Assembly: GCA_963816905.1 (NCBI GenBank)
Contig: CAWFMQ010000014.1
Coordinates: forward strand, 172,715 to 236,714
Direction: 5' to 3'
DNA: 64,000 nt
Origin: an uncultured Chloroflexia bacterium
Lineage (GTDB): Bacteria > Chloroflexota > Limnocylindria > Limnocylindrales > CSP1-4
In this document: positions 4,041-62,067 of the stretch, in pieces
Layout of the letters: each line of letters opens with the position of its first letter
Position numbering within the stretch: the first letter of the stretch is position 1
The notes under the pieces: model-generated
The model's input: only the letters and a program-made list of their open reading frames with translations
The model's database searches: none
Told to the model about the DNA's origin: nothing
Program-made: the position numbers and the translations under genes

Positions 4041-4116
4041 GCGGGAGTAGCTCAGTTGGCAGAGCGTCAGCCTTCCAAGCTGAATGTCGCGAGTTCGAAC
4101 CTCGTCTCCCGCTCCA
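4041..4116 (+). tRNA. tRNA-Gly (anticodon UCC)
   Basis: Manual cloverleaf fold: acceptor GCGGGAG/CTCCCGC, D-arm GCTC/GAGC, anticodon loop CTTCCAA, T-arm with TTCGAAC loop, discriminator U plus encoded CCA. Confidence 0.85.
4070..4116 (+). repeat. 47-bp direct repeat (attL-like) = 3' half of tRNA-Gly
   Basis: Identical 47-mer GCCTTCCAAGCTGAATGTCGCGAGTTCGAACCTCGTCTCCCGCTCCA occurs again at 15310-15356. Confidence 0.8.
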
Positions 4117-4289
4117 ATTCTCGTTTTGTGCTCGTGGCGACACGATAACTGCGTCGCGCCTGCATCGGATGGAGCGGCGAATGTGCCCCATCCGGGTGCT
4201 ACAACGCTTCGTCAAGCCCAGCTCAGTTGGGACCGCGGTTGCACCAGGCGACCGCCCGGGGGACCCGTCGCATGGGTGCAAAAGCGAGC

Positions 4290-4900
4290 TACGCCGCCGC
4301 AGAGGCTCAGCCTGCATCGGCCAGCCCGGCAGGAACATGGGCACGCGTGCGGCGTAAGCGCCGTAAGGCGCTCCCGAAGTAGTCGGTCAGGAGCCGCTCT
4401 TCGGCCCGCGACCGAGCCACGAACGCGGGGTGTAGCGCCAGCCACCAGAACCGGTCGGTCCGACCACGTCAACTTCGTCGACGACTCGGCGACGGCTGCC
4501 GACACGCGCCCCGAGGTCCAATGGCCGGGATTTCTGGCGGTGGTTGGCCGCGCAGATGAACCGCACGGTAGCCGCTCACGCACGGCGCCCCGCGAAGTAC
4601 GGCGCCCACAGCCCGATCTCGACGCCGAACGCGGTGTGCCCGAGGAGCATGGTCCGGTTGAGCCGGACCGGAGACCGAACCAGCCGTAGCCCAACGAGGG
4701 GAACAGGACGACGAGCGGTAGCGCGGCCGTCGCGATGCCGAACACCGTGCCTGTCGGGAAGCTCGGTCGCCCATTCCCGCGACGCGGAAGCAGCAGGAAT
4801 GCCTGCGTGAGGATGATGCCCGTGCCGTAGTGCGTGAGGAGACCCAGCCCGAGCTCACCGCGCCGCGCCGGTTCGCTCCTGATGTCATCGTGGCTCCCCC
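4290..4900 (-). pseudogene. Possible ICMT/PEMT-family membrane methyltransferase remnant (multiple frame changes)
   Basis: Minus-strand fragments ...RTDRFWWLALHPAFVARSRAEERLLTDYFGS / AYGAYAARVPMFLPGW resemble the C-terminal EE..L...FG..Y..Y...V.R motif of isoprenylcysteine carboxyl methyltransferase-like proteins. The fragments lie in different frames. Confidence 0.25.
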
Positions 4901-5783
4901 GGCCGCGCCCCAGGTCGGCGGCCCAGCGGCCGATCATGTCCGGGCCGAGACGGTCGGAGGAGAAGGCGGTCCCACCGAGTCGACTGGCGGCCACCATGGC
5001 GACGTCCATGGTGATGGTCGCCAGCACGCCCGCGGGAGCCCCGGCCGGGACACGGATCGAGCGGCTGTCACGGACGCGAATTGCCCGGCCATTATCCGTC
5101 GCCGCCGCGGGCTCTCGGAGGCGGATATGACCAGAGACCATGCTGAAGGCGGTCGCACCGGAAGCTACTGGAGCCGATGTCATCGGCCTCGCCCGGATCG
5201 CCCCATGACCGTGAAGCAGCGACAGCGACAGGTCCGAATGGCTCTGCGCTGGCCACGGATGCGACGACGTGTGGCCGAACCACCAGACGGACGGGCATCG
5301 GGATGGCTGCGGCGAGCAACGGTCGCGGAGGCGGATGATGCGGTCATGGCGTTCGCGGGGGCGACAGCGGCGTCTCCCGACTGGCGCCTCGGGCTGTGGC
5401 TGGGCAGCGCAGGGTTGCTCGGCGGGGCCATCGGGTGCGACTCCAGCCTCGGCTGCCTGAGCGTCGGCTGCGGCGCGGGCTTGGAGCGCTGGCGGTGTGC
5501 CTGGCGATCGGGTACCTCGACGCAGCGATCGTCAGATAATGAACCCGCATGTTCGCGCGCACCGACGCAGGCGCGGGCCCTCGGGACGCGGAACCACTGC
5601 GGGAGGGCTGCAGGCGAGCGTCCTCGTTCCGGACGATGGCTCGAACGTTCGTATGGGCTCGCGCTTGACGAGCACCAGACCAGCCGGCTCGCCGATCACC
5701 AGCCGACCTGCTGTTCGGCCCGTCGCATCAGGGCCGTCTGCATCTGTCATATCTCAGCGCGCGTTGAGACAGTTCGCACTGAG

Positions 5784-6534
5784 ATGTTGCTCGTCCTCAC
5801 CCCGCTGCTCTTCGGCCTGTCGTTCCTCTCGGGAATGATGGGCCTCGGGGTCGCCTTCGTCGCGATCCCGGTCCTGGGCCTCTTCGGCTACGACCTCAAG
5901 GACGTCATCCAGCCCTGGGCGCTGCTGCTCAACGGCCTGACCGCGATCAGCAGCGCGGTCGTCTTCTGGCGGGCCGGGATGGTCGATCGGCGCGGGCGCG
6001 GCACTGCTCGTGGTCATCACGACGATCGGCGCGCCACTCGGCGTCTGGCTCCTCAGCTTCGCCTCGACCACGCTCGTGTGGTGGCTGTACGTGGGGGTGC
6101 TCGTCTTCCTCGCGGTCCGGATGCTGCTGCCCAAGCGAAAGGCCAGCGAGGACCTCGCGACGATCACCGACAAGGCTCGGCTCGAGGCGGGGGCGGCGGC
6201 CGTGCCCATCTCGGTCTTCGCGGGCTTCCTGGGCGTGGGGCCCGGGTTCCTCCTCATGCCGACGCTGACGCTCGTGGGCTACTCGGCGCGTCTCGCGGCC
6301 GCGACCAACTCGGTGGCGGTGATCCTGCCCTCGTTCTCCGCCTTCGCCGGCCACCTCGGGACCGCCACGTTCGACTGGCTGACCGTGATCGTGACCTCGA
6401 TCGCGGCGGTCATCGGCGCCTGGCTCGGCGCCCGTTTCACGGCCGGACGAGTCAAGAGCGCAACGCTCTCGCGGATCTTCGCCGTCGCGCTCATCATCCT
6501 CGCGCTGCAGCGCGCCTGGATCCTCCTCTCGTGA
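5784..6534 (+). CDS. Sulfite exporter TauE/SafE family membrane protein (frameshift near 5985)
   Basis: ATG 5784 (MLLVLTPLLFGLSFLSGMMGLG...) in frame 0 continues in ORF 6010..6534 (frame 1). Multi-TM DUF81/TauE pattern with two Gly-rich half-domains. Confidence 0.7.
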
Positions 6535-7016
6535 GCACGCCCACCGAATCCGGAACGCGGCTGGTCCGGACGACGCACGAGGTGCACCCGGTGAACCTGC
6601 TCGATGCCGCGAGCGCCCCCGGCGAGCGCACCCGCGTCCACGGCGTTCTCTGGGACGGCGTCCTCAACGCCACGCCCGAGGACACGCTCGACGGCCCGTT
6701 GCCGATCGAAGCGCTGCTGGCGGCACTGGCCGGCTGTGTCATCCGCACCCTCCGCTCCGTGACCGACGCGGCGCACGTCCGCTTCGAGCACGTGCAGTTG
6801 CATGTCGCCGCCGAGCGATCCGACGATCCGCCGGCCATCACCCGCATCCGCCTCGACATCGCCGCCGACACCGAGGTCGCGGTCGAGGAGGCCCGCCGCC
6901 TGGTCGAGCTCGCCCTTCACAACGGCACGATCACCCGCACCGTGGCGCGCGGGACCTCGCTCGACGTTCACCTTGCACTCAACGGCACGCCCACGGAGGT
7001 GACCTATGCCGACTGA
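6531..7016 (+). CDS. OsmC/Ohr family protein
   Basis: GTG 6531 overlaps the tauE stop. ~160 aa with OsmC signature ...ALLAALAGCVIRTL.... Confidence 0.65.
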   Translation: MSTPTESGTRLVRTTHEVHPVNLLDAASAPGERTRVHGVLWDGVLNATPEDTLDGPLPIEALLAALAGCVIRTLRSVTDAAHVRFEHVQLHVAAERSDDPPAITRIRLDIAADTEVAVEEARRLVELALHNGTITRTVARGTSLDVHLALNGTPTEVTYAD

Positions 7017-7335
7017 ACTGATCGTCATCCCTCAGCTGCGGATGGATCTGCCGGCGCCCCGGGTCGACGACGCCGTCGCCGCGGCGGCGCTCATCGCCGA
7101 CCGGACGCGCGCGGGCATCCTGCGCATGCTGCGCGACGGGCCGCACTGCGTGTGCGAGCTGGCCGCCGCCCTGGGCGAGCGACAGAACAACGTCTCGATG
7201 CACCTGGCGCGACTTCGCGAGGCCGGCCTGGTGCGCCAGGTCCGGCACGAGGGCGACGCTCGCCGGGTCTACTACGAGCGCGACGAGGCGGCCCTGGCGG
7301 CGGCCGGCCGCGCCATCGCCGAGGTGCTCGCATGA
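7006..7335 (+). CDS. ArsR/SmtB family transcriptional regulator
   Basis: 109 aa. HTH ...ILRMLRDGPHCVCELAAALGERQNNVSMHLARLREAGLV... with a CVC metal-site motif. ATG overlaps the osmC stop. Confidence 0.8.
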   Translation: MPTELIVIPQLRMDLPAPRVDDAVAAAALIADRTRAGILRMLRDGPHCVCELAAALGERQNNVSMHLARLREAGLVRQVRHEGDARRVYYERDEAALAAAGRAIAEVLA

Positions 7336-8398
7336 CGACGCTCGCGGTCCGCCGGGCGCACGTGCCTCTGCCGCTCGTCGTCGGCGCGCCGTCGGCGTCT
7401 GGCTCATCGCCTGGATCCTCAACGCGCCGCTGGCGGACTGGGCCGCCTTCACCGCCCTGGGGCTTGAGCGCGGCAGCCACCTCGGTGAAGCCGTGGCCTT
7501 CTTCCTGCTCGACGTGCCCAAGGTGCTCCTGCTGCTGCTCGGCATCGTGACCGTCGTTACGCTCATCCGCGGCTTCTTCTCGCCCGAGCGGGTGCGATCG
7601 GCACTCGTGGGCCGGGGGCTCCTGGCGGGGACCTGCGCGGCCGCCTCGTTCGGCGTCGTGACGCCGTTCTGTTCCTGCTCCGCGGTGCCGCTCTTCATCG
7701 GCTTCGTGGAGGCAGGCGTCCCGCTCGGCGTCACCTTCGCGTTCCTCATCAGCAGCCCGATGGTCAACGAGGTCGCGCTGGTGCTGCTGTGGGGCCTCTT
7801 CGGACCCTGGATCGCGCTCACCTACATGGCCGCGGGCCTGGTCGTCGCCGTCGTCGGCGGCCTGGTCATCGGCCGGCTGCACATGGAGCGCTTCGTCGAG
7901 GACTACGTCTGGGCCCTGCAGGGCACCGGCACGGCGACCGTCGAGGTGCAGCTCACCTGGGCGGAGCGGCTCTCCGACGCCTGGCGCTACACGAAGGATC
8001 TTGTGCGGCGGATCGCGCCGTATCTCCTCATCGGGATCGGCATCGGCGCGTTCATCCACGGCTACGTGCCGACGGAGCTCGTGGCCTCGATCGGCGGGCG
8101 GGGCAACCCGCTCGCGGTGCCGCTCGTGGTGCTCATCGCGATCCCGCTCTACTCGAACGCCGCGGGCACCATCCCGATCGTCCAGGCGCTGCTGGCCAAG
8201 GGCATGCCGATGGGCACCACCCTCGCCTTCATGATGGCCATCACGGCCATCAGCCTGCCCGAGTTCATCATCCTGCGCCGCGTCATCAAGAAGCCCCTCA
8301 TGGCGGTCTTCGCGACGGTCGTGACGATCGGGGTCCTGTTCATCGGCTACCTGTTCAACGTCCTCATCCCGCTGACTCGGAAAGGAGTTCCACCGTGA
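7332..8398 (+). CDS. DUF318/ArsP-like permease (TPFCSCS motif); frameshift near 7385
   Basis: ATG 7332 in frame 0 ([13 protein letters not shown]..), then the body in frame 2 (ORF 7493..8398). Conserved TPFCSCS motif as in organoarsenical efflux permease ArsP. Multi-TM. Confidence 0.65.
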
Positions 8399-8634
8399 AG
8401 AAGATCGAGGTCCTCGGACCCGGCTGCAACAACTGCAAGGCGCTTGAGAAGGCGGCCCGCCAGGCGGTGGCGATGGCCGGTGTCGATGCGGAGGTCGTGA
8501 AGGTCACCGACTACCGCGAGATCGCCGCCTACGGCGTCATGCACACGCCCGGCCTCGTCATCGACGGCAAGGTCGTGAGCGCGGGCCGGATCCCGAGCGC
8601 CGGCGACATCGCGGAGTGGCTCTTCGAGGACTGA
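8395..8634 (+). CDS. Thioredoxin-family 'redox-active disulfide protein 2'
   Basis: GTG 8395 preceded by GGAAAGGAG. 79 aa: [18 protein letters not shown]... Canonical partner of DUF318 permeases. Confidence 0.75.
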
Positions 8635-8728
8635 GGCGTCGTCGACGGCCCGGAACCTGCCGTTCGGCAGGTCGGAATCGGGCCAACAGACAAACGGCGG
8701 TTGTACAAACGCGCGTTAGGGTGTCGGC

Positions 8729-9148
8729 ATGGAGCATGACCCGCACGCCGTCACGCACGTCGCCTGCAGCGAGAGCGATCTCGCCGCGCTGCAGGCCATC
8801 GCCGAACCCAATCGGGCCCGGATCATCGAGTTCCTGGGTCATGGCGAGCACTGCGTCTGCGATGTCGGAGGCGCCCTCGCCATGAGCCCGGCACTCGTGT
8901 CGCACCATCTGCGCGTGCTCCGGGCGAACGGCCTGCTCCTCGAGCGGCGCAGCGGGCGCTGGGGGTACTACGCGCTCGACCTCGACCGGCTGGCTCGTCT
9001 GCGTGCCGTGGTCGTCGAGCTGCTCACCCCGACCAGTGCCGCCGCCAGCGCCTGCCTGTGCTCGGATTGCGGCCCCGCGAAGCAGACCGTGGGTACACGC
9101 CGCGATCCGTTCCGGCGGCTGCCGGTGTTCACCGGGACCGCCCGATGA
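8729..9148 (+). CDS. ArsR family transcriptional regulator with Cys-rich C-terminal tail
   Basis: HTH ...RIIEFLGHGEHCVCDVGGALAMSPALVSHHLRVLRANGLL...; C-terminal ...ACLCSDCGP.... Confidence 0.75.
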   Translation: MEHDPHAVTHVACSESDLAALQAIAEPNRARIIEFLGHGEHCVCDVGGALAMSPALVSHHLRVLRANGLLLERRSGRWGYYALDLDRLARLRAVVVELLTPTSAAASACLCSDCGPAKQTVGTRRDPFRRLPVFTGTAR

Positions 9149-9501
9149 GCTGCCCGGTCCTGGTGGTCGGGTTGCCATCGCCGGCGGGCTGCCCGTCCGC
9201 CCAGACCTGGCGCACCGCGGCCGAGACGCTCGAGAGCCGCCTCCTCGCGCGCTTCGGGCCTGCCGTCAACTTCGAGTACGCCGAGCTGTTCAGCCCCGAC
9301 ATGGTCGGCCATCCCGACGTCGAGGCGTGGGTGGCGGCGGGCGAGGCGATGCCGCCGATCGTCGTCATCGACGGTGTCCGTCGCTTCGCCGGCGGCAAGC
9401 TGCTCTTCTCGGCCATCGAGCGCGCCGTCGCCGAGATCCTGGCGCGGCAACCGGTGTCCCTCGGAGCCGACGCTGGATCTGCGGGTGCGAGCCGTGGGTG
9501 A
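9145..9501 (+). CDS. ArsD-like protein lacking the Cys12-Cys13 metalloid-binding pair
   Basis: ATG 9145 overlaps the arsR stop. C-terminal half ...AWVAAGEAMPPIVVIDGVRRFAGGKL... parallels the ArsD thioredoxin-like fold (..LPLLLLDGETVMAG..). The N-terminus has only a single Cys (PAGCPS). Confidence 0.4.
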   Translation: MSCPVLVVGLPSPAGCPSAQTWRTAAETLESRLLARFGPAVNFEYAELFSPDMVGHPDVEAWVAAGEAMPPIVVIDGVRRFAGGKLLFSAIERAVAEILARQPVSLGADAGSAGASRG

Positions 9502-9570
9502 GGTCACCGATGGCCGGTCGCACCCCACCGATCCCTTCGAGCGGGGCTCGTGCTGCCCACCGGGTCAGTG
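9500..9570 (+). pseudogene. ArsD N-terminal fragment (DPFERGSCCPPGQCGPVFE)
   Basis: Short stretch in frame 2 carrying the vicinal-Cys CCxxGxCG motif of ArsD. It diverges after ~25 aa. No start codon. Confidence 0.4.
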
Positions 9571-9749
9571 CGGCCCGGTGTTCGAGACATCGCTCCTCGA
9601 ACTCCTGGTCAGGGGCGTTCGCCGGCGCCTCGATCGCCGGCGGGACGCTGCGAGCGCTGGTCCTGCCAGGCGCCCGCTGACCGACGTTTCGGAATTCACC
9701 CCGCCGTCGGTGCCGACACCGGCATCGCGGACAGCAAAGGATGTGCCGC

Positions 9750-10106
9750 ATGACTGACCAAGTCCCGGGCCGGGCGGCTCCCGATGTGGAACTCTTCGAC
9801 CCGCCGCTGTGCTGCCCGACCGGGCTGTGCGGTCCCGTGCTCGACACCACGCTCGTCGATCTCGGCGAGGCGTGCATCACGCTCCAGGCCGAGGGCCATA
9901 CCGTCGTCCGCCACATGATGACCGCCGAGCCGCAGGCCTTCATGCGCAACCGCGACGTCTTCGAGCTCATCCGGGCGCGCCAGCTCGACGTGCTGCCGAT
10001 CACCGTCGTCCGGGGCGTGGTCGTCAAGACCGACGCCTACCCCAGCCTCGACGAGCTCCGCGACGCGCTCGAGCCACCCCGTCGACGCCGCCGCACCCGC
10101 GCATAA
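9750..10106 (+). CDS. arsD: Arsenical resistance metallochaperone/repressor ArsD
   Basis: RBS AAAGGA 8 nt before ATG 9750. ...ELFDPPLCCPTGLCGPVLDTTLVDL... matches ArsD (FDPAMCCSTGVCG) over its full ~115 aa length. Confidence 0.75.
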   Translation: MTDQVPGRAAPDVELFDPPLCCPTGLCGPVLDTTLVDLGEACITLQAEGHTVVRHMMTAEPQAFMRNRDVFELIRARQLDVLPITVVRGVVVKTDAYPSLDELRDALEPPRRRRRTRA

Positions 10107-10128
10107 CCGGCCCCCGAAAGGATCCCTC

Positions 10129-12000
10129 GTGACCAAGTTCCTGTTCTTCTCCGGTAAAGGCGGCGTCGGCAAGACGACCATGGCCTGCGCGACCGCAGTG
10201 GCCGAGGCCGACGCGGGTCGACGCGTGCTGATCGTCACCACCGATCCGGCGTCGAATCTCGCCGACGTCTTCGAGCAGCCGATCGGCCACGCGATCACCG
10301 CCATCGAACGGCGTGCCCAACCTCTGGGCGATGGAGATCGATCCCGACAAAGCGACCGCCGAGTACACCGATCGGACGCTCGCGCCCATCCGGGCGTGTT
10401 CCCCCCGCAGATCGTGCGCGTCATGGAGGAGCAGCTCGCCTCGCCCTGCACCGCGGAGGTGGCCGCCTTCGATCGATTCGCGGACTTCATCGACCCGGGC
10501 GCCCTCGACGTTGCGTCCGACCCGCGACCTTCGACCTCGTGATCTTCGACACGGCACCGACCGGGCACACCGTCCGGCTGCTGGAGCTGCCCGAGGCGTG
10601 GTCGAAGAGCATCTCGGAGGCCGAGGCGGGCAGCGGGCCAGACGTGCATCGGCCCGGCGGCGGCCATCGCCGACGCCAAGGCAAGTACGAGCGGGCACTC
10701 GCGGCGCTCCGCGACCAGGAGCGCGAACGCGCTTCGCGTTCGTGCTCCAGCCCGAGGCGACCGCGATCGCCGAGACCAAGCGAGCCGGCGCCGAGCTGGC
10801 CCGGCTGGGCATCGTGACCACCGAGCTGATCGTCAACGGGATCCTGCCGGCCGAGGAGGCGGATCGACGCCCTTCTTCGCGCTCGCGGATCGCGATGCAG
10901 GAGCGCTACCTCGCGCGAGATCGCGCCGGCAGCTGCCCGTGCCCACCCGCCGCGTCCCGCTGCTCGACGGCGAGGTGCGCGGCATCGCCCGGCTGCGGGC
11001 CTGGCGCCGCTCCTCGCCGATGCCCAGCGCCGCCGGCCCGGTCTTCGGCCGCGGTCGATCGCGGCGCCTCGGACGGCGCACCCACGACACGGCCGCCGCG
11101 ATCGCGACCCTGCGGCCGGCGGCCGGACCGCGGACGGTCTTCTTCGCCGGCAAGGGCGGCGTCGGCAAGACGGCGGTCTCCTGCGCCACCGCGGTCTGGT
11201 CGGCCGGCCAGGGCTACCGGACCCTGCTCGTCACGACGGATCCCGCGGCGCACATCGGCGAGGTCCTGGGCGAAGTCGTCGAGACCGAGCCGACGCCGGT
11301 CGCATGGCGTCGACGGCCTCTGGGCGGCGCGCGTCGATGCCAAGGCCGCGGCGATCGCCTACACCGACCGGATCATCGCCGACGCCGTCGCGCGCGGCCG
11401 CAGCCCGCAGTCGATCGCGGCGATGCGCGAGGAGCTCGACTCCCCGTGCACCGAGGAGATGGCGGCGTTCGACCAGTTCATCGAGCTCGCCAGCCGGCAC
11501 ACCTTCGACGTGACGATCTTCGACACGGCACCGACCGGCCACACGATGCGCCTGCTCGAGCTCCCGATCGACTGGAGCCGCCAGCTCGACGTCAAGGTCT
11601 TCGCGTCGGTCGACGGCGATGCGGCCGACGACGTCGCCAAGGCCCGCTTCGCGGGCGTCATCGACATGATGCGCGACCCCGCGCGGAGCACCTTCGCCTT
11701 CGTCATGTACCCGGAGGCGACCCCGATCGTCGAGGCCAGCCGCGCGATCGACGAGCTCGCCTCGCTCGGCATCCCGCTCGGGCTCGTCGTCGCGAACATG
11801 GTCCTGCCCGAGGAGGCCTGCCGGACACCGTTCGCGCGGGCCCGTCGGCAGATGCAGCAGGCGCTACCTCGGCGACATCGAGGGACGCTTCACGGCGCCC
11901 GTCCTCGAGGTGCCGCTCCTCGACGGCGAGGTCATCGGCCTCGAGCGGACTCAGCGAGCCCTCTTCGCCGCCGGCCATGGGCCTGGTCGCGGTTCCCGCA
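10129..12000 (+). pseudogene. arsA: Arsenite-translocating ATPase ArsA (two-domain), many frameshifts
   Basis: N-half FFSGKGGVGKTT ... DTAPTGHT; second half FFAGKGGVGKTA ... FDTAPTGHTMRLLELP. Both halves are split over all three frames (ORFs 10129.., 10313.., 10539.., 10939.., 11910..). Confidence 0.8.
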
Positions 12001-12897
12001 TAGCCGGAGGCACCGATGCTTCAACAGCAACCCACGATCCGGCGGCTCGCCGCCGCCAGCCAGGCCGCCGAGATCGATGCCTCGCGGCCGGCGCGACCTT
12101 CGGGCCGAGCCTCGCGCGACCCCGGAGTTCGTCCGCCTCTGCTCCGGCGTCGGCGCGCGCTGGGAGCGGATCCGGTCGCCCAGGCCGCGATCAGCGCATA
12201 CGAGGCGAGAAGCAGGAGGACTACCGGGTCGAGGCGGCGATGAACCTGCTCGAGCCAGGAGCGAGAGCGACCGGCCGAGCTCGGCTGCTCAACGCGCGAT
12301 GTATCGCCGTGCCCTCCGTGGTGGCCTACGTCGCGGCCCACGGCCGCGTTCGGGGACCTCTGCCGCGAGACGTCGGCGGTCATCAGCGGCCTGATCGGGA
12401 TCGACTTCGCCGCCAACAGCCGCTCCGGCGGCTGCTGCGGCGGTGAGGGAGGACACCATGCTCAGCACCGAGACTCCACGAGGCGGCCGTCGAGTTCGGC
12501 CGCGCTCTCCGCCAGGCGCCCGCCGTGTCTCGCCTACCGCGCGGCCGAGGCGGCGCTCGACGCGGATCCCGGTCGCCCAGGCCCTGATGGCGGACCTGCG
12601 CCGACCAGCAGGCGTTCATCGCGGCCCAGCAGCGCGGCGAGACGCCGGGCCCGAGCGCAGATCGAGGCCCTGCGGCTGGTGCCAGGCGGACGTCCGGGCG
12701 AACGAGACGATCATGGCCCACCTGCGGGCCACCAACGACGTGAAGGCCTTCCTGCCGACGGTCGCCACCGAGGTCAGCCGGGCGCTCGGCACCGACTACG
12801 CGAGGCTCATCGCTCCGACGAGCTGCTGAAGACCGACGCGGTGGACCGCGCCGAAAGGAGGTAGCGAATCCGGGTCCATGACGAGCGGATGATCCCG

Positions 12898-14150
<1,253 letters not shown>

Positions 14151-14303
14151 GCCGTGCGGCGCACGTCGGCCTTCGTCCGCCCATCACCCGAGCCAGCGCA
14201 TCGCGGCGCTCGACAGGTCCTCTTTCGGTGTAGGCGATCCCGCCGTTAGCGAGGGCGGAGGGGGTCGAGCGAGGGGGCCGCGGGGAGGCGATCGAAGGGC
14301 AGC

Positions 14304-14606
14304 ATGCGGGCAGCCGCCACCGCGAAGCGGGAGAACGGCTACCGCGAGTACAGCGACAGGGACCTCGCCCTGCTCCGGCTCGTGGTCAGCCTGCGTCGCA
14401 TCCGCCTCGGTCCCGAGGATGCCGGCCGCCTTGCGCGACTGTGCCTCGAACGCGGCGCCGTCGATGTCGACCTCGCACCGCTCCTCGCCGACCAGCGCGC
14501 GGCCATCGCCCGCCAGCGGCAGGACCTCGACCGCCTGGAGGACGAGCTCCTCGATCTCGAACTCACCATGTCTGCCGCGGGTCGCGCGGCCAGGGAGGGT
14601 AGGCCA
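14304..14606 (+). CDS. MerR-family regulator remnant (lacks N-terminal HTH helix), read in-frame into arsC
   Basis: ...NGYREYSDRDLALLRLVVSLRRIRLGPEDAGRL + coiled-coil matches the MerR effector/dimerisation region. No HTH was found in the frames checked upstream. No stop before the ArsC Met. Confidence 0.35.
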
Positions 14607-15071
14607 ATGTCCGACGCGCCGATCCACGTACTTTTCGTCTGCACGGGTAACTCGGCTCGCAGCCAGATCGCCGAGGCGCTCCTCGCTTACATCGGCGGCT
14701 CCGACTTCGAGGTCCGTTCCGCCGGAACCGAGCCGAGGGGAGTGGACCCGTACACGGTGCGCGTGCTCGGTGAGATGGGCATCGACTGGTCGCGGGCTAC
14801 CAGCAAGCCGATCGGCGACTTCCTCGGCGAGCAATTCGATTACGTGATCACCGTCTGCGACCGCGCACGCCAGACGTGCCCGGTGTTCCCTGGGTCGGAG
14901 AACTCGCTCCACTGGGGTCTGCCCGATCCTGCCGAGGTCGAGGGCAGCGATGAGGAGATGCTTGCCGCCTTCCGGACAACCCGCATGGCGCTGACGCAGC
15001 GGCTCCGTCCGTTCATCGAGGTCTCCCTCCGCGCGGCCGGCCGCACCCACCGTTCGGTGCTGGCCGGCTGA
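14607..15071 (+). CDS. arsC: Arsenate reductase, LMW-PTPase family (thioredoxin-coupled ArsC)
   Basis: RBS GGGAGGG 8 nt upstream of ATG 14607. HVLFVCTGNSARSQIAEALL (CX5R P-loop) ... DYVITVCD. Confidence 0.8.
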   Translation: MSDAPIHVLFVCTGNSARSQIAEALLAYIGGSDFEVRSAGTEPRGVDPYTVRVLGEMGIDWSRATSKPIGDFLGEQFDYVITVCDRARQTCPVFPGSENSLHWGLPDPAEVEGSDEEMLAAFRTTRMALTQRLRPFIEVSLRAAGRTHRSVLAG

Positions 15072-15309
15072 GAAGCGCACACTCGTGAGGTGCGCGCGCC
15101 CGATCGCTGAAGGGGCGAGCGAGCCAAGGCCATCCAGTGCGGCTTATGGTCGATGGCGATCGGGCTGGGCTGATGACTGATCGCGGGTGACGGCGACCCC
15201 ACTCATGGTGAACTACCAGAAGACGGCACGGGGGCCCCGCGAAGACACGATAACTGGACACGTTTCGCGCGGCTCTCGGAGCACGCTGCTGCTGCGCTCA
15301 GACGTCGCG

Positions 15310-15356
15310 GCCTTCCAAGCTGAATGTCGCGAGTTCGAACCTCGTCTCCCGCTCCA
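15310..15356 (+). repeat. 47-bp direct repeat (attR-like), partial tRNA-Gly 3' half
   Basis: Exact copy of 4070-4116. The upstream sequence cannot form the 5' half of a tRNA (no GCGGGAG acceptor strand). Confidence 0.8.
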
Positions 15357-15619
15357 CCCCCTGCGTTATTCACGTGGGAACGTCCTTGGCCGCTTCGTGC
15401 TCGCGCCGGGCGTGAGCGGTGCGCGTGGTTTCCCACGCAAATACAACAGGGGGCCGCTCCACTCCTCCCCGATCGTCCCGGCTGAATGCCGCGTCGGGAC
15501 GGGCCGCCCGTTGTCGCAAGGCCGCATCCGCCGCCCCGTCGGTGATCAGAGGCGGCGGAGACGTGACCCGGGAGTCCCCGCCCTGCGGAGACTGGGCGGG
15601 TCCGGTGCCCTGGCGAACC

Positions 15620-16741
15620 CTATTTGAACTGGTACGAGACCGGGATCTTTGTCTGGAAGAGCAGCCTGGTCTGGTTGGCGTTCCACATCTGAATGCGGAT
15701 CTGGTCCACCTTCACGGTTCCGTCGCTGATCGTGAACCAACCGCTGGCTGAACCGGTGCCCACCGGGTAGAGTGGCGATGGGTGTGCGGCATAGTTCGGG
15801 GTCAGCGCGCCACTCGTGAAGGGGCGCGCGAAGATGCGCACGCCGCCGGCGACGTTCGTCGTGTAGCTCATGACGAGCGTGACGCGGTCACCGAACTTGA
15901 GGATGTTCGGATTCGCCGGCCTGAGGGTGATGGAGTTCACGACGTTGGTCGGCGCCCTGAACTGGTAGGTGACCGGGACGACCGCCTGGAAGAGCAGCCT
16001 CGTCTGGTTCGCGTTCCACATCTGGAACCGGACCCCCGTCACGGTCGGCGCGCCACTGGTGATGGTGAACCATCCGCTGCCGGTCCCGGTGCCGACCGGA
16101 TAGAGCGGCGAGCCGGAAGCGGCATAGCTGGGGGTCAGGGAGCCACCGGTGAGAGGGCGCGCGAAGATGCGTACGCCGGCCGCCAGTGTTGTCGTGTAGT
16201 TGAACGAGACCGCGACCCGCTGGTTCCGCTTCAGCACGTTCGGCGTCGCCGTCAGCCCGATGTGGCTGATGACGTTCTTCGTGGCGCTCGTGAACTGGTA
16301 GTGGACCGGAATGAAGGCCTCGAAGAGGAGCGTTGTCTGGTTGGCGTCCAACACCTGGAAGCGGATCTGATCCACCGTCACGTTGCCGGTGGTGATCGTG
16401 AAGTTCCCACTTCCGACACCGGTCCCGACGGGATAGAGCGGCGAACCCGAAGCGGCGTAGCTGGGGGTGAGCGCGCCTCCCGTGAAGGGCCGCGCGAAGA
16501 TCCGCACTCCTCCGGCCTCACTGGTGGTGTAGCTGAAGGAGATGGTGATGCTGTCGTTGTCCTGGAGGATGTTCGGGGTGCGAGGTGCCAGCGAGATCTG
16601 CGTCACCAGGTGATCGGCCGAGATCGCAGGGCCCACCGCCGGCCCCGGGGCCGCAAAGGCCGCCGCGGGCACCGAGGCCGGCAGCATTAACGCCACGAGC
16701 AGAAGCGCGCTCGAGATCCAACGAAGAGTTGTTCTCTTCAT
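15620..16741 (-). CDS. Secreted protein with three tandem ~112-aa repeats (uncharacterised beta-rich domain)
   Basis: ATG at 16741 with GGGAGGA upstream. Signal peptide MKRTTLRWISSALLLVALMLPASVPAAAFA. Three repeats (...GGVRIFARP(F/L)TGG(A/S)LTP(S/N)YAA..SPLYPVGTG..) are also visible as ~336-bp DNA repeats. Confidence 0.6.
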   Translation of the reverse strand: MKRTTLRWISSALLLVALMLPASVPAAAFAAPGPAVGPAISADHLVTQISLAPRTPNILQDNDSITISFSYTTSEAGGVRIFARPFTGGALTPSYAASGSPLYPVGTGVGSGNFTITTGNVTVDQIRFQVLDANQTTLLFEAFIPVHYQFTSATKNVISHIGLTATPNVLKRNQRVAVSFNYTTTLAAGVRIFARPLTGGSLTPSYAASGSPLYPVGTGTGSGWFTITSGAPTVTGVRFQMWNANQTRLLFQAVVPVTYQFRAPTNVVNSITLRPANPNILKFGDRVTLVMSYTTNVAGGVRIFARPFTSGALTPNYAAHPSPLYPVGTGSASGWFTISDGTVKVDQIRIQMWNANQTRLLFQTKIPVSYQFK

Positions 16742-16899
16742 CCCCACAGCCCCATCCTCCCTGAGCAGACCAGTGCTCACTCCGCCATTGGGTCGGCCTC
16801 GATATTGGCCCTATGCGACCTTCGAGGCGACCACATGCAAACCCAGCGGTGGGAACCCATCGGGCTCCCGTGCCTTCCCCCCGCCTGGAGGCGCCCAGT

Positions 16900-17600
16900 A
16901 TGGAGGCTGCGTCGTCGAATAGATAGCGCGAAGGTGGACAATTCGGCCGACACGGACGCGCGCAGTGGCGTCCATCGTTCGGACGTCGAGAGCAGGCCCT
17001 CGCCCGGGGTGCGCGTCACCGCGACGATCGATGGGGCCTTCCCACCGCTCACGGATCCCCCGGTGCGTCACGGGCCCGCGCGGCGATCGACCCGGTCGAA
17101 GAAGAGCCCCGACTCCGCTTCGCCCCGTCCGGGCCGCGTCTCCCTCCCGCGCCAGGCAATGACCGAGCTCGACCGTCGCGAGCGGCAGGAGCCGGGATCC
17201 CCCCGCCGAACGGAATGAGCCAATCGCCCGTACCCGGGACTCGTGGACATGCACGGGTCCGGCGTCAAGGTCCAGGGTCGGGCTGCCGGTCGCGCTGATC
17301 GCGATCCCCGCAGAGCCGCCGTCGGCGAACGCGACCGCGAACACCAGCCTCGCGTCGGTGCCGCCCGGGACCGTAGCAGGTAGCGGACACCGAGCGCCTT
17401 GCCGAGTCCACCGCCCGGCTGATACGCGATGGCGGTCAGGCGCGGATCCCCTGCCAGCTCCACCAACCGCACGAGCGCGAACGTGAGCAGGCCCAGCCAG
17501 TCGGGGTGCTGGGCGGCCTGCTTGCTCTGGTCGAGCTGCTGTCCGGCCAGCTCGACCTCCTTCTCCCGCTCGCGAGGGCGCCATGGAGGAGCTGGTTGCC
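16900..17600 (-). CDS. Hypothetical protein, apparently frameshifted
   Basis: Protein-like stretches across two minus frames (..DWLGLLTFALVRLVELAGDPRLTAIAYQPGGG.. / ..ARLVFAVAFADGGSAGIAISATGSPTLDLDAGPVHVHESRV..). No family assigned. Confidence 0.2.
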
Positions 17601-18219
17601 CGATCGGGGGCTGCCGCCGCCTGGTTGGTGACGCCGTTGGCCGCCTGGCCGAGCACGAGGTCAGCGCATTCGCGAGCTGATCGACGCGGGCGGCCGGCTC
17701 ACGGCAGTGCCCGCAACCCGCTGATGGGCCGGTCGATGGAACGCCATGTGAAACGGGGCGCGACGGTTCCGGCGGGTGACGTCCCACGAGGCGGTGAGCC
17801 GAAGTTCGGACGGGAGCAGCCGTTGCCACGGGGCGTCGGCTGGTGCCGGGCCGAAGCCAACCCGGTACCTGCACCTTCGCCATGCCCGCCAGGTTCATGG
17901 CACGCTCCTTGAGGCGAGGGAGTTGCCGCTGTCGCTGATTCGCCCCGGGGGGGAGCCACCCGTCCGGGGACCGCTGTCAGACCTCGCCACGGACCCCTCC
18001 GCGGGGGTGACGAGGACTGACCGGGGCCAAGCTACTCGTTACGTCGGCCGACTGCAAGACATGTTGTGCCGGCCGGAGGGTGCGCGTCTCGAACGTGGTC
18101 CGTTCCCGGCGTGACCGTGAGGAGACGCTGACGCCTCGTTCGTCGGTCGGGACGGGAAGGCACGAAGATGACGTGCGCCCTTGCCAGCGCCGTGCGCACG
18201 CATATGATCCGCTCGCCAG

Positions 18220-20151
18220 ATGGTCAGGCGCACTCGGTCCATGGTTCTCTCGGCGGCGGTTCTCCTCGTCGCCGCCGCCTGTACGGCATCGCCACCGGTG
18301 GCGACTCCCGCCGCGACCGCGGCAGCCACATCGGGTTCGACGAGTGCCGCCACCGGCATCACGTCGCCGCCCACGCCTGCCGCCCTGAGCCCGGCCCCCT
18401 CGACGTTCCCGTCGCCTGCGGCTTCCTCGCCGATCGAGTCCCCGGCGCCGGCCTCGCCCGCACCGTCGGCGCCCGGGTTCGTACCGGGACCGGGCTGGCA
18501 GTCAGTCCTGGCGCAGATCGGATCGGATGGGACCGTCTCGAAGGCGGCCGCGGTCCAGGCGTTCTCGCTGGCATTCGGACCGCTCCCCGACGTCACGCCG
18601 CCGAGCGGCGCTCCCGGTTCGGTCCGCTCCGGCACGCTGGCGCTCCGCCTGCTGGTCAGCTTCTGGGACCAGCTGACAGCCGGGCAGCGGAGCGCCGCGA
18701 TCGCGCTCATCCCCGAGTTGGGCGGGCTCGGCAATACGGCGACGACGCCGGCCCTGGTCGCGGCGCCGGCGGTTGTCCGGCACGCCGGCGTGCCCGCCAC
18801 GAACGTGCCGCCCATGGCCCCGAAGCGGAGCAACGCCTTCTACACGCAGCTGGCCCAGCAGATGTTCGCCGAGATCGGCGCACACCTGACGACGCCTCTC
18901 TCGATCGGGCTGACGCTCGACGCCCACGTCGGTTCGGTGCAGCTCGCGAGTTCGGGCATGGAGACCGGCGTCTACAACGCCGCCGGCGGCATCACCGGCA
19001 AGCCGTCGAAATGCGTGATCGTGGTGTCTCCGCTCGGCGACGCTGCGAGCGACGCGGACGTGAACGCGATGATGGCCCACGAGACCTGGCACTGCTACGA
19101 GGGCGCGGTCATCGGCCTGGCGCGGTATTGGAGCCAGAACCCGGCTCCCTGGATCATGGAGGGTGAGGCCGACTGGATCGGCGCGACTCTCTTTCCGGAT
19201 GCGCCGACGAACCAGGGCGGCTGGCCCGACTACATCGAGAAGCCCGGCGCGATGCTGTTCACGCGCGCCTACTCGGCGCTCGGTTTCTACGCGCAGCTGG
19301 CCGCGGCCGGGATCGACCCGTGGGGCAAGCTCGTGCCGATCCTCGAGGCAACGAGCAACGCGGCGGCCTTTGTGGCTGCCGGTGCCGACGCCGATCCGTT
19401 CCTGGACTCGTGGGCATCCAGCTACCTGCGGGACCCGACGCGGGGAGCGCCGTGGGAGATCACCGGTCCGGCGGCACCCGGCGACACGGTCCGCGCCACG
19501 CCCACGGTCATCCAGCTCTCCAACGGCGGCTCGGCCCACGAGTCCGCGGCGCCGTACACCAACCTGATCGCGGTTCTGGGGTCGTCGCCGGACGTCATGA
19601 CCGCGACGTTCTCCGGGCATACCCGCGTCTCGGATGGTGCCGGCCACGACTACCTCGTCGGTGGGTCCGCCGCGTTCTGCCTCTTGAACACCGGCTGCGT
19701 GTGTCCCGGGGCTTCCGCGGAGCCTCCGCCGCTGCCGCTCGAGGGCGGAGCCGTGGCGCTGGCGGTCACGGGCGGGACGGGGGGTGCCGACGGAACCCTG
19801 GCCGGCATCTCATTTGCGGACTTCTGCTCGCCCATGACGGGAACATGGGTGGGCACGTGGCGCAACGACAACGGGCGGGCCCACGGCGACCTGACCGCCA
19901 CGTTCGTCCAGAAGGGCACTACCTTCTCCGGCACCGGCGAGGTCACGGGGAACACCTGCGTACGGCATGCGAACCTGACCGGCACCATCAACGGGGTCAA
20001 TATCACGTTCGGGTTCGCATCGGCCGCACGGCCAGTGACGTTCACCGGGGTCCTGAACAGGTCATCGATGTCGGGCACCTGGGAGGCGGTCGCCTGCGGC
20101 ACCGTGCAGGTCACGCTGACTGGGACATGGGAGTCGACGAAACAGAAGTAG
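18220..20151 (+). CDS. Lipoprotein, putative zinc metallopeptidase (HExxH)
   Basis: Signal peptide + lipobox (LVAAAC); long Pro/Ala/Ser linker; HETWH motif (MMAHETWHCYEG). 643-aa intact ORF. Confidence 0.55.
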   Translation: MVRRTRSMVLSAAVLLVAAACTASPPVATPAATAAATSGSTSAATGITSPPTPAALSPAPSTFPSPAASSPIESPAPASPAPSAPGFVPGPGWQSVLAQIGSDGTVSKAAAVQAFSLAFGPLPDVTPPSGAPGSVRSGTLALRLLVSFWDQLTAGQRSAAIALIPELGGLGNTATTPALVAAPAVVRHAGVPATNVPPMAPKRSNAFYTQLAQQMFAEIGAHLTTPLSIGLTLDAHVGSVQLASSGMETGVYNAAGGITGKPSKCVIVVSPLGDAASDADVNAMMAHETWHCYEGAVIGLARYWSQNPAPWIMEGEADWIGATLFPDAPTNQGGWPDYIEKPGAMLFTRAYSALGFYAQLAAAGIDPWGKLVPILEATSNAAAFVAAGADADPFLDSWASSYLRDPTRGAPWEITGPAAPGDTVRATPTVIQLSNGGSAHESAAPYTNLIAVLGSSPDVMTATFSGHTRVSDGAGHDYLVGGSAAFCLLNTGCVCPGASAEPPPLPLEGGAVALAVTGGTGGADGTLAGISFADFCSPMTGTWVGTWRNDNGRAHGDLTATFVQKGTTFSGTGEVTGNTCVRHANLTGTINGVNITFGFASAARPVTFTGVLNRSSMSGTWEAVACGTVQVTLTGTWESTKQK

Positions 20152-24688: not shown

Positions 24689-24764
24689 CCGCTGGGCGGT
24701 CCGGCCAGTGACGCCAGGACCGGATCGACTCGTCGCCGGCGTAGATGGACCGCAGCCAGGTCCG

Positions 24765-25413
24765 TCAGTCGCGGGGCAGCTCGATCAAGCCTCGCTCGAT
24801 CGCCCGCGTGACGGCCGAGGTCCGGTCGGTCACGCCGAGCTTCTCGAAGATGTGGGCGAGGTGGGTCTTGATGGTCGCCTCGCTGATACGCAGCGCGTGC
24901 GCGATCTCCTTGTTGGACGCGCCGCGGGCGACCAGCGCGACGACCTCGAGCTCGCGCCCCGACAGCGCCTCGGCCCCTGTGCCCGGACGAGGCGCCAGCG
25001 CGGTGCATGAGGCGAGCGGCGACCGAGGGAGCAAGGGGTGCACCGCCGGCGACGACGCTGCGCGCCGCGGCGAACAACGTCTCGCGCGGCGCGTCCTTCA
25101 GCATGTACCCGGCTGCTCCGGCCTCGACCGCCCGCAGGATCTGGGCGTCTGAGTCGTAGGTCGTCAACACGAGGACGGGCGGTGGGTCGGGCAGCCGCCG
25201 GATGCGGGCGATCGCTTCCACGCCATCGAGGACCGGCATCTGCAGGTCCATCAGCACGAGATCGGGTCGGGTCGCCAGCACCTGCTCGATGGCCTGCGCA
25301 CCGTCGGCGGCCTCGCCCACGACCGCGAAGCCGGCGTCGGTCTCGAACATGCCACGGAGGCCGGTTCGGACGACGGGGTGATCGTCGACGATGAGGAGGC
25401 GGATGACGGTCAT
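24765..25413 (-). CDS. NarL/FixJ-family response regulator (receiver + LuxR HTH); frameshift in linker near 25000
   Basis: Receiver MTVIRLLIVDDHPVVR...DLQMP (frame of 25413). LuxR HTH ...LSGRELEVVALVARGASNKEIAHALRISEATIKTHL... (ORF 24765..25043). Confidence 0.75.
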
Positions 25414-26723
25414 CGCGCAACCAGCTCCGGCGTGGGCTCAGGCGCCGGGGCGGGCGCGGGCAGGCTGACCGCGATCGTGGTGCCCTCGCCGGGCGCGCTC
25501 TCCACCGCCACGCTGCCGCCGAGCGCCTCGGCTCGCTCGCGCATGCCGAGCAGGCCGAGACCGCCCGCAGGACCCGGCGCGAGCGCGGTCGGGTCGAAGC
25601 CGCGACCGTCATCGGCCACGTCGAGGGTGACCTCGCCGGGGAAGTACGAGAGCGTGACGGTGACGTGGCTGGCCGCCGCGTGGCGGCGGACATTGGCGAG
25701 CGCCTCCTGCGTCGCGCGCAGGAGCGTGACTTCCACGTCGGGGTGGAGGGTGCGCACGGTCCCTGTGACGGTGACATCGGTGGGCGGCCCGTCCTGGGCG
25801 GCGGCCGCGGCGACCCGCTCGATCGCGCCCGGGAGCCCGCCACCGGCGAGCGCGTCGGGTCGCAGCGCCCAGGCCAGGCCGCGCGCCTCGGCCAGGCTGC
25901 TACGGGCCACACCTTCCGCTTCCTGCACGTGGTGCCGCGCCCGCGACGGATCGGTATCGAGCGAGACGTCGGCAGCCTCGAGGTGGGCGACCACGCTCGC
26001 GAAACCCTGGGCGAGCGTGTCATGGATCTCGCGCGCCAGGCGGCCGCGCTCCTCCTGGACGCCTTCTTCGCGTTCGGCCGCAGCCAGCTGGCGGCGCGTC
26101 CGCTCGAGCTCGTCGATGAGCCGCCGGCGCTCCAGGCTCTGCCGCGCGATCGCCCCGATCCAGAGCGACATCGCGAACCCGAAGGCGATCTGGACGAGGT
26201 CCGAGGCGATGTGCGGCGCGGCGTCGGCGAGCTGCCAATCGTAGAGATTGAGCTCGGAGAGCGTGAGCGCGATCGCGAGGCCGATACGCTCCCACGACCA
26301 CGGCCGAGCGCCTGGCATAGAGCAGGAAGAAGATCTGCGGGTAGAGCGAGAACTCGAGGTAGCGCGAAGTACGGATTCAGCTGGAGCAGGATCCCGAAAC
26401 AGAGCGTGACCGCCGCCGCATACGGCACGGCGTAGTCGAACCACCAGCCCCACTGCCGGGGATGGCGCATGAACATCGCGACGTACAGGACGAGCAGCAG
26501 GCCCGCGAGGGCGACGGCGACGACCATCGCCTCGACCGTCATGCTCCAGGAGATGCAGCGCGAGCGCTGTCGCGACGACGATCGTCGCGATGTTCCAGAC
26601 GTGCCACAGCGGGAGGCTGCGCACCCATACGTCGGACGGCGCCGCGGTCGCCGTCGCATTACCAGCGGCGGCGACACCAGCGGGTATGTTGGACGGTGCG
26701 GGCGCCATGCTCATCCGCGTCAT
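25410..26723 (-). CDS. Sensor histidine kinase (HisKA_3/NarX-DesK type)
   Basis: N-terminal TM region; H-box ...LAREIHDTLAQGFASVVAHLEAA...; HATPase_c G-boxes. 4-nt overlap with the response-regulator start. Confidence 0.8.
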   Translation of the reverse strand: MTRMSMAPAPSNIPAGVAAAGNATATAAPSDVWVRSLPLWHVWNIATIVVATALALHLLEHDGRGDGRRRRPRGPAARPVRRDVHAPSPAVGLVVRLRRAVCGGGHALFRDPAPAESVLRATSSSRSTRRSSSCSMPGARPWSWERIGLAIALTLSELNLYDWQLADAAPHIASDLVQIAFGFAMSLWIGAIARQSLERRRLIDELERTRRQLAAAEREEGVQEERGRLAREIHDTLAQGFASVVAHLEAADVSLDTDPSRARHHVQEAEGVARSSLAEARGLAWALRPDALAGGGLPGAIERVAAAAAQDGPPTDVTVTGTVRTLHPDVEVTLLRATQEALANVRRHAAASHVTVTLSYFPGEVTLDVADDGRGFDPTALAPGPAGGLGLLGMRERAEALGGSVAVESAPGEGTTIAVSLPAPAPAPEPTPELVAR

Positions 26724-26739
26724 CGTAGACTCGCGCGAC

Positions 26740-27552
26740 CTACGCGAACTGCGTTCCGACGAACCGCCGGTAGATGAGGAGCGCGGCGACGCCGGAGGCG
26801 ATGCCCCAGCCGACGACCCAGGCGAGGTCGACGATCGGCTGCACCGGGATCGGCAGTCCGGTCATCGACTGCGCGAGCATGGACAGGTGGTACGTGGGGG
26901 TGAACTCGGCGACCTGGCGGACCGACGGACGGGAGATCGTCGAACGTCCATGAAGACGCCGGCGGTGAGCGAAAGCGGCATCAGGATGAGGAGATTCACC
27001 GCACCGGCGCTCCCGGGGCGAACCAGGAAGCCGACGAGGAAGCCGATCGGCGCGAGCACGAGCGAGCCGACGAGGAGGAGTGCCCGCGGTGGCGAGCCAC
27101 TGTCTCGAGCGGCAGCCGGGCACCGGTCGCTAGCGCCCTCGATCCCGAGCAGGACCATGATCGCGGTGGAGGCGACGAGCACGAAGGCGAGCTTCGCGAC
27201 GAGGTACACCGCGGCCGGCATCGGGGTGACGCGGGCGAGCCGCAGGTCGCCCCGCGCCCGCTCGTCGGCGATCGTATGGCCGATTCCGGAGAGGGAGACG
27301 CTGAGCACGCCGAAGATGCTGAAGACGACGATGAGGTAGCCGCCCACGGTGCCACCGCCGGGCACGGGCTCCGGCGGCCCGCGAGATGCCGATGATCGGT
27401 AGAAGAACAGCGGCAGGGCGATGGCCGCCATCGCGAAGTCGGGTGCGCGGAGGTGGCGGCGCAGCTCGGCGGCAGCCTGGAGCGCGAAGGGCCGCAGGCG
27501 TGGGCGGTCGACGCCCGGGTCGGGCCGGGGTCGTAAGCGTCAGGGTGTTCAT
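26740..27552 (-). pseudogene. ABC-2 type transporter permease (two frameshifts)
   Basis: TM-rich segments across three minus frames (ORFs 26740..27123, 26862..27431, 27130..27666). ATG overlaps the upstream ATPase stop (ATGA). Confidence 0.55.
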
Positions 27553-29466: not shown

Positions 29467-29469
29467 GAC

Positions 29470-50791: not shown

Positions 50792-50814
50792 TGACACCTC
50801 CTTGTGGTGGTGGG

Positions 50815-52492: not shown

Positions 52493-52513
52493 TGGCTCTC
52501 TTCCGTCATCGGC

Positions 52514-61955: not shown

Positions 61956-62067
61956 GTCGACGTCCTCGTCGCGTAATCGGTTCTGGTTTCGGCCCTTCGC
62001 GAAGCATTTCGAGCCGTCGACGAAGAGGATCTGGCCGCGGCGCGCGGGAGCCTTCGTCGCCCTATCG

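Follow-up and report, generated by a model that had tools for sequence, protein, structure and literature searches.

Introduction

The 3′ halves of tRNA genes are used as integration sites by actinomycete elements and phages; for example, pSAM2 uses tRNA-Pro and mycobacteriophage L5 uses tRNA-Gly. In Streptococcus thermophilus, integrase-less remnants of integrative and conjugative elements (ICEs) are found between attachment (att) sites and are known as cis-mobilizable elements (CIMEs). Islands in tRNA genes can be located by the principle of Islander, namely that an island is bounded by a regenerated tRNA gene on one side and a displaced 3′ fragment on the other; the catalogue lists a 3′ tDNA fragment for most of its islands (3760) and an anticodon-centered attP site for about half (2083) (Hudson, Lau and Williams, 2015; PMC4383910). 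An island of this sort, about 11.2 kb long, is described here from a 64,000-nucleotide stretch of DNA (hereafter “the window”) of an uncultured Chloroflexia bacterium (GTDB lineage Chloroflexota; Limnocylindria; Limnocylindrales; CSP1-4; GenBank assembly GCA_963816905.1, contig CAWFMQ010000014.1, positions 172,715 to 236,714 of the forward strand). It lies between a tRNA-Gly(UCC) gene and a displaced copy of the 3′ half of that gene. The region is a fixed, integrase-less island remnant resembling a CIME, and as such an instance of a well-known kind. Probably, it goes back to an old tyrosine-type integration at the anticodon loop of tRNA-Gly(UCC), after which the integrase and mobility genes were lost and a fixed, recombining cargo locus was left.

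An intact tRNA gene with a same-strand 3′ fragment reaching from the anticodon stem-loop to the 3′ end is the arrangement of the anticodon-centered Islander class, and the size of 11.2 kb is within the usual range of Islander islands. Unlike these, the present island has no integrase gene, no compositional signature and no documented empty site, and the Islander filter would reject it because of the missing integrase gene. With pSAM2 and L5, it shares an identity block of the order of 40–60 bp from the anticodon loop to the tRNA 3′ end and repeated candidate arm-type motifs near the core; unlike them, it has no int, xis, replication, transfer or structural genes, and its motifs are putative arm sites. 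Like CIMEs, the island is flanked by attL and attR and consists of cargo only, without recombination or transfer modules, and presumably it was derived, as CIMEs are, by deletion from an integrative element. Unlike the case of CIMEs, no intact ICE or actinomycete ICE (AICE) with these att sites was found, and its host is uncultured and has 70% GC. Finally, the island resembles arsenic resistance (ars) gene islands in having two ArsR regulators, ArsD, ArsA, a thioredoxin-type ArsC, an ArsP_1-family permease and an ArsE-like thioredoxin, while it differs from them in that no ArsB or ACR3 pump is found inside and TauE, OsmC, YlbF-like genes and a truncated dehydrogenase accompany the ars genes.

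The tRNA-Gly gene and its displaced 3′ fragment

The boundaries of the island are formed by the following features.

4041..4116 (+): tRNA-Gly(UCC), intact, with encoded CCA (ARAGORN, tRNA-Gly(tcc); Rfam RF00005, 71 bits)
4070..4116 (+): attL core, first copy of the repeat, from tRNA position 30 in the anticodon stem to CCA
15310..15356 (+): attR core, second copy of the repeat, the displaced tRNA-Gly 3′ fragment (47/47 in the related contig L081)

This tRNA gene is the only one in the whole 64 kb, called as tRNA-Gly(tcc) at 4041–4116 on the plus strand by ARAGORN, with the anticodon at tRNA position 34, and Rfam reports this tRNA and nothing else. The 47-mer GCCTTCCAAGCTGAATGTCGCGAGTTCGAACCTCGTCTCCCGCTCCA is found, without mismatch, at 4070–4116 and 15310–15356, both on the plus strand. 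There are two copies only in the window, with no third at up to three mismatches, and 100 shuffles gave 0 matches. At the second copy, identity ends sharply at each edge, no residual tRNA similarity remains upstream of position 30, and neither ARAGORN nor Rfam calls a tRNA. Thus the three statements with which the initial annotation began, an intact tRNA-Gly(UCC) gene, an exact 47-bp copy of its 3′ half at 15310–15356 and the inability of this copy to fold as a tRNA, are all borne out.

The displaced fragment lies about 11.2 kb downstream of the tRNA gene in the same orientation. In the terms of Islander, the locus therefore shows a tDNA with a same-strand 3′ fragment, and the start of the repeat at tRNA position 30 gives a crossover sublocation of the anticodon-centered class. 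Judged from its sequence, the repeat pair is a tRNA attachment-site pair of the anticodon-loop type.

The right junction in related contigs

Relatives of the locus were recovered by a protein search with the secreted repeat protein encoded in the right flank; the search also returned the source itself, at 100% identity, on a contig of 281 kb with NCBI and ENA records. One of them, L081 (ENA ERZ25039489, contig_27217), is 98–99% identical to the window in the flank and holds, in this order, the repeat protein, the 47-mer, ArsC and the dehydrogenase before the contig ends. The other, L083 (contig_27215 of the ERZ25039489 sample), belongs to a more distant lineage with 75–89% identity; here also the 47-mer, matching at 47/47 plus one extra C, adjoins ArsC and the repeat-protein gene. 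The right junction, composed of ArsC, the 47-mer and the secreted repeat-protein gene, has been assembled independently in these two contigs and is therefore not a misassembly. As far as can be read from the aligned contigs, the attR junction is real, and it either predates the split of the lineages of the window, L081 and L083 or has spread among them. The footprint of integration into a tRNA gene that had been recognized at the outset is thus supported by the position, the orientation and the sharp edge of the repeat pair, and by the same attR junction in two relatives.

The repeat protein itself (15620–16780, minus strand) has three repeats of about 110 aa, belongs to no Pfam or NCBIfam family and lies in a patch of lower GC (0.66). 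It occurs widely in metagenomes, including those from soil, its longer homologues have a type IX secretion system (T9SS) sorting domain at their end, and the nearest named homologue, at 72% identity, is from a Thermoleophilia metagenome-assembled genome.

Further searches were made from other parts of the locus. A scan of genome contigs with the SGL protein encoded upstream of the tRNA gave 80 loci with up to 79% identity, none with the tRNA-Gly synteny, and this protein is unsuitable as a locus marker because it is too widely spread. L087, the sole relative with the upstream aminotransferase, runs in the direction away from the tRNA. Pattern scans of metagenomes returned nothing, either for an empty-site or attR junction or for attL with the 13-mer described below, and exact look-ups of the window proteins (thioredoxin, P0001 and P0121) returned no contig. 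In viral contigs, there were 0 matches to the 47-mer; a 28-mer matched 41 viral contigs, nearly all of them phage tRNA arrays, and no recognizable integrase stands beside the bare 28-mer fragments in L121 and L128. Known plasmids gave distant matches to arsA and the permease of the island, at 65–68% identity.

Anatomy of the island ends

Next to the two cores, three further features can be described.

4139..4151 (+): 13-mer GACACGATAACTG, copy 1, 22 nt inside the island from attL; candidate arm-type integrase-binding site
15244..15256 (+): 13-mer GACACGATAACTG, copy 2, 53 nt inside the island from attR; kept in L081 and L083
15357..15453: imperfect palindrome of 97 nt directly outside attR, between 8-bp direct repeats CCGCTCCA at 15349–15356 and 15454–15461

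The 13-mer GACACGATAACTG has two exact copies in the window, in direct orientation, one just inside either end of the island. By a rough estimate of our own, the chance that two 100-nt stretches of this composition have an exact 13-mer in common is about 1 in 1000. By analogy with known elements, we infer that the 13-mers would be arm-type integrase sites flanking the core in a circularized element, that is, in attP. On the island side of attR, 237 nt are 91–96% identical between the window and L083, while the core is 47/47 and the adjacent ArsC is about 84% identical.

This gradient can be read in another way. The 11-kb cassette may still be at work, resembling a CIME mobilized in trans, with functional attL and attR and arm-type sites, served by a tyrosine integrase from a related element located elsewhere or arriving later. 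It would then be selection that keeps the attR fragment and the arm of about 240 nt, because the cassette is still excised, integrated and exchanged by the integrase acting in trans; such selection is doubtful. A displaced fragment without function is nevertheless 47/47 in the window, L081 and L083, the 237 nt inside attR are more similar to L083 than is ArsC while the sequence just outside the core is altered, and conservation extends to the paired 13-mers. The conservation of attR could equally well result, however, from strains having recombined recently or from gene conversion by the tRNA, and two copies of a 13-mer are a thin basis for arm sites. Moreover, no cognate integrase was found in the examined parts of the 64-kb window, and no circular or empty-site junction in two metagenome scans. 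On balance, a cassette still mobilized in trans is unlikely. If it were true, the tRNA-Gly locus would be a serviced docking site at which an uncultured soil lineage of high GC swaps its modules for metal and redox stress.

The palindrome has 24-nt arms and a predicted folding energy of -50.5 kcal/mol (z = -2.3). It is present in the window and L081, absent from L083, and single-copy in the data searched. It may be a small insertion into the fragment end resembling a miniature inverted-repeat transposable element, since the flanking direct repeats look like a target-site duplication. Or it may be native sequence behind the tRNA gene that was deleted in L083. Neither a canonical terminator nor a canonical promoter was found at the two junctions, and tRNA-like scraps at 4220–4230 and 15481–15493 were set aside as barely above chance, as 3 and 10 of 300 shuffles, respectively, score equally.

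Gene content of the island

Because the window has 70% GC, raw lists of open reading frames (ORFs) are uninformative; coding segments were located by third-position GC (GC3) and scanned against Pfam and NCBIfam. Between the two cores (4117–15309), the following genes were found.

ca. 4560..5040 (−): DUF2938-family gene (Pfam PF11158, E=6e-18, profile positions 4–121 of 150)
5041..5704: no family assigned, 0.66 kb; weak minus-strand coding signal at 5342–5497; six-frame Pfam search at E<=1 negative
5784..6534 (+): TauE/SafE-family exporter, matched by Pfam in two frames and broken by one 1-bp insertion near 5996
6531..7016 (+): OsmC-like peroxiredoxin (Pfam PF02566, E=9e-14), collinear with the homologous locus L130
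7006..7335 (+): ArsR/SmtB-family regulator (Pfam HTH_5, E=6e-16)
7332..8398 (+): ArsP_1 (YraQ/UPF0718) permease (Pfam PF03773, E=5e-67)
8395..8634 (+): MTH895/ArsE-family thioredoxin-like protein (Pfam Thioredoxin_3; NCBIfam TIGR00412, 101 bits, cut-off 62)
8729..9148 (+): second ArsR-family regulator (Pfam HTH_5, E=1e-10)
9130..9501 (+): ORF without known family; good coding signal (GC3 0.95), no Pfam or NCBIfam match
9741..10106 (+): ArsD metallochaperone (NCBIfam NF033727 equivalog, 94.8 bits, cut-off 90; Pfam PF06953)
10130..11963 (+): two-domain ArsA ATPase over at least four frames (Pfam ArsA_ATPase pieces in four ORF segments; NCBIfam ArsA)
12046..12829 (+): two Com_YlbF-like genes in three frames (tblastn with two PF06133 proteins of L083)
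12959..14246 (+): aldehyde dehydrogenase resembling methylmalonate-semialdehyde dehydrogenase (MMSDH), split by frameshifts and truncated (Pfam; NCBIfam TIGR01722)
14250..15071 (+): MerR/CueR-like fragment without N-terminus (MerR_1, E=0.002), followed by ArsC in one open frame

Most of the cargo named in the initial annotation is recovered by Pfam and NCBIfam: OsmC, the first ArsR, the ArsP-like permease, the thioredoxin-like protein, the second ArsR and ArsD as such, TauE with its frameshift (seen as matches in two frames around the 1-bp insertion near 5996), ArsA as pieces of ArsA_ATPase in several frames, the mmsA gene as an MMSDH-like aldehyde dehydrogenase in several frames that is truncated as well, and the MerR-like remnant read into ArsC as MerR_1 and LMWPc matches in one open frame. 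Three labels have to be replaced. The supposed ICMT-like remnant is the DUF2938 gene on the minus strand (PF11158, about 4560–5040), no Pfam or NCBIfam family matches the frame at 9130–9498 that had been called ArsD-like, and the stretch of about 0.9 kb said to have no intact ORF holds the two Com_YlbF-like genes spread over three frames.

In TauE, alignment with an intact homologue in L130, a short-read assembly, shows a single inserted base. The N-terminus of the ArsP_1 permease is disturbed by small indels at 7382–7399; its homologues with 80–91% identity have 347–350 aa. Coverage of the Pfam profile by the dehydrogenase stops at about position 331 of 461. The MerR fragment matches residues 29–108 of CueR in NCBIfam, and the thioredoxin-type ArsC of the low-molecular-weight phosphatase kind lies at about 14628–15014 (Pfam LMWPc, E=1e-20), with a match to the NCBIfam arsC_pI258 family that is below the equivalog cut-off. 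The combination that characterizes an ars operon, ArsR with ArsD, ArsA and ArsC, is therefore present, ArsA being split over frames. An arsenite efflux pump, ArsB or SBF/ACR3, has no match among the island segments, and the ArsP_1 permease is present instead.

Search for a recombinase

The initial annotation found no recognizable recombinase in the island and suggested that an integrase might have been lost within the stretches 4.1–5.7 kb and 12.0–12.9 kb. The first statement stands. Among the coding segments of the island, Pfam recognizes no recombinase, transposase, conjugation or phage family, and the Pfam and NCBIfam matches are to transport, redox, regulatory or ars functions throughout. 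The profile search of both suspect stretches that had been proposed was carried out with Pfam at E<=1 on six-frame translations of 4100–5830 and 11940–13100 with stops masked; no frame contains an integrase or other recombinase domain, and DUF2938 is the sole match of any weight. The two stretches are thus not integrase graves and hold ordinary genes, DUF2938 and the two YlbF-like genes. Likewise, the island shows neither the integrase gene by which Islander accepts an island nor the conjugation, replication or phage structural genes by which an ICE, an AICE or a prophage is recognized.

A recombinase could also be present without having been recognized, either as a novel family in 5041–5704 or 9130–9501 or as a known one hidden by assembly frameshifts, since an indel-rich assembly can fragment domains and these two stretches have a coding signal without a family. 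They measure about 0.66 and 0.37 kb, however, well under the size of an integrase gene, and the frameshift-tolerant six-frame Pfam search was negative at E<=1, so that this possibility is very improbable. Known integrase genes need roughly 1 kb or more. After annotation, the longest stretches without assignment are 0.44, 0.66 and 0.37 kb, gaps too short to contain a complete integrase.

Outside the island, the ORF at 15620–16780 just right of attR was considered as an integrase and rejected, since it encodes the secreted three-repeat protein and has no recombinase domain. No integrase is annotated over about 8 kb of the homologous right flank of L081.

Modular and mosaic nature of the cargo

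The cargo genes recur in other combinations elsewhere. The block TauE-OsmC-ArsR-ArsP_1-thioredoxin is found intact and collinear in L130, which is from another organism, at 83.5% nucleotide identity and in an unrelated context, where it is followed by ACR3 and a cation diffusion facilitator (CDF) transporter. ArsR-ArsP_1-thioredoxin is found in a third context, L088, beside a YlbF-like gene. In L083, about 7 kb of other genes (12438–18881) lie between ArsC and the dehydrogenase, namely those for a metallophosphoesterase, a pyridine-nucleotide disulphide oxidoreductase, GCV_H, DGC-domain proteins, OsmC, thioredoxin, XdhC and ArsR. Since L083 holds different genes at the locus, the locus is a variable hotspot of stress genes.

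Furthermore, the comparison between the window and L081 over 12978–15309 is mosaic: ArsC is 84% and the dehydrogenase 89% identical, while the pieces between and around them (250 nt) are 98–99% identical. This pattern suggests that alleles were replaced by recombination, or else that strains were collapsed in one assembly. In sequence terms, the cargo is a patchwork of portable stress modules.

Frameshifts are not evidence of decay

The frameshifts of the island genes had been taken as a sign of an old, decaying island. This argument does not hold, for frame switches occur along the entire 64 kb. Of the genes outside the island, four were checked, and each is split: the receiver and GerE domains of a NarL-type response regulator are in different frames, an ABC ATPase is divided, lgt (prolipoprotein diacylglyceryl transferase) has profile positions 1–93 and 94–240 in different frames, and an extracytoplasmic function (ECF) sigma factor has regions 2 and 4 in different frames. 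Examples of split genes are found at about 25070, 28090, 47180 and 52200.

Between the window and L081, substitutions amount to 1–2%, yet there is a 1-bp indel per 50–130 bp, mostly outside homopolymers. For coding DNA, such a ratio of indels to substitutions has no biological explanation, and it indicates that the consensus of one assembly, or of both, contains errors. Most of the frameshifts, as they appear in these alignments, are thus probably sequencing or assembly errors, not pseudogenization. Because they are window-wide and come with this indel noise, they give no information on the age or decay of the island, and pseudogene calls anywhere in the window are unsafe in view of the indel-rich assembly.

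The truncated aldehyde dehydrogenase is the one firmly supported lesion in the aligned sequences. In tblastn and blastn, similarity to the full-length L083 gene stops at about 13997, and some 320 bp in the window stand where L083 has roughly 7 kb. The truncation junction is common to L081 at 99% identity.

Probable history of the locus

The findings above can be arranged into a history in which an old integration was followed by loss of mobility. An integrative element would have entered the 3′ half of tRNA-Gly(UCC) by means of a tyrosine-type integrase acting at the anticodon loop; for both the event and the type of the integrase, we infer this from the att-like pair. The element would have brought its own copy of tRNA positions 30–76, so that the tRNA was regenerated at the left end (attL, 4070–4116) and the original 3′ half was displaced by 11.2 kb (attR, 15310–15356). 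Later, deletion would have removed the integrase along with whatever transfer or replication genes there were, and the island would no longer be self-mobile. The modules that remained would be TauE-OsmC-ArsR-ArsP_1-thioredoxin, then ArsR-ORF-ArsD-ArsA-YlbF-YlbF-aldehyde dehydrogenase, and finally the MerR fragment followed by ArsC. They would have been inherited vertically and reshuffled among related strains by deletion and homologous recombination.

Several observations weigh against this history. The attL junction is seen in this window alone, L081 and L083 stopping short of the left end. An empty tRNA-Gly site was sought in related genomes and none was found, the relatives recovered sharing the attR junction. 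No surviving integrase, excisionase, transfer or phage gene links the cargo to a mobile element, and the reading of the 13-mer as an arm site has two copies behind it. In addition, the composition-deviation analysis that had been proposed, made here for GC and tetranucleotides, did not set the island apart: neither its GC nor its tetranucleotide usage leaves the range seen outside the island, with tetranucleotide distances of 125–202 in the island windows and 116–307 in the rest, and composition gives no sign of a foreign origin.

A composition like that of the surroundings would be expected, as would the conservation of cargo and junction in related lineages and the lack of any mobility gene in the island, if there had been no integration at all. 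In that case, the 47-bp copy would have remained from a second tRNA-Gly gene, or from a local duplication, after a rearrangement had removed the 5′ part, and the genes in between would be native. Against this stands the geometry of the fragment, which runs exactly from anticodon stem position 30 to CCA with perfect identity, as in site-specific recombination and not as expected for a random deletion end, and which has the orientation expected for an island. Besides, a decaying pseudo-tRNA would hardly keep 100% identity between lineages with differences of 11–16% nearby, and the paired 13-mers lie inside both ends. A native locus is accordingly a quite unlikely explanation, and an old integration followed by the loss of the integrase is the reading retained here.

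Other features of the window

Outside the island, a segment of 5.5 kb (24707–30215) is absent from L081, which has 137 bp there, and represents a strain-specific insertion or deletion. Apart from ABC-2 transporter genes, it carries those for a LuxR-type response regulator, a RES-domain toxin and an HTH_17/Rv2175c-like protein, and no recombinase was found in the segments of it that were scanned. Just right of the repeat-protein gene, 16950–18131 does not align with positions 9243–9842 of L081, the window being about 580 bp longer; this is a further, small difference between the strains. Paralogues of island genes are also found: a second TauE, which is intact, lies beside a rhodanese and an ECF sigma/anti-sigma pair (50447–52513), and a second Thioredoxin_3-like sequence is at about 62066–62182. 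The segment 56001–60000 has the highest GC of the window (0.757) and by far its largest tetranucleotide deviation, 307 against 116–202 elsewhere.

Significance

The significance of this locus hardly goes beyond annotation. It is a clean case of an island bounded by a tRNA gene that would escape detectors relying on an integrase, Islander among them, and it holds a lesson of method, as the apparent pseudogenes in the window are no proof of decay. For the organism itself, the finding means that the patchwork of stress and arsenic genes of an uncultured bacterium with 70% GC sits in a probable former integration site.

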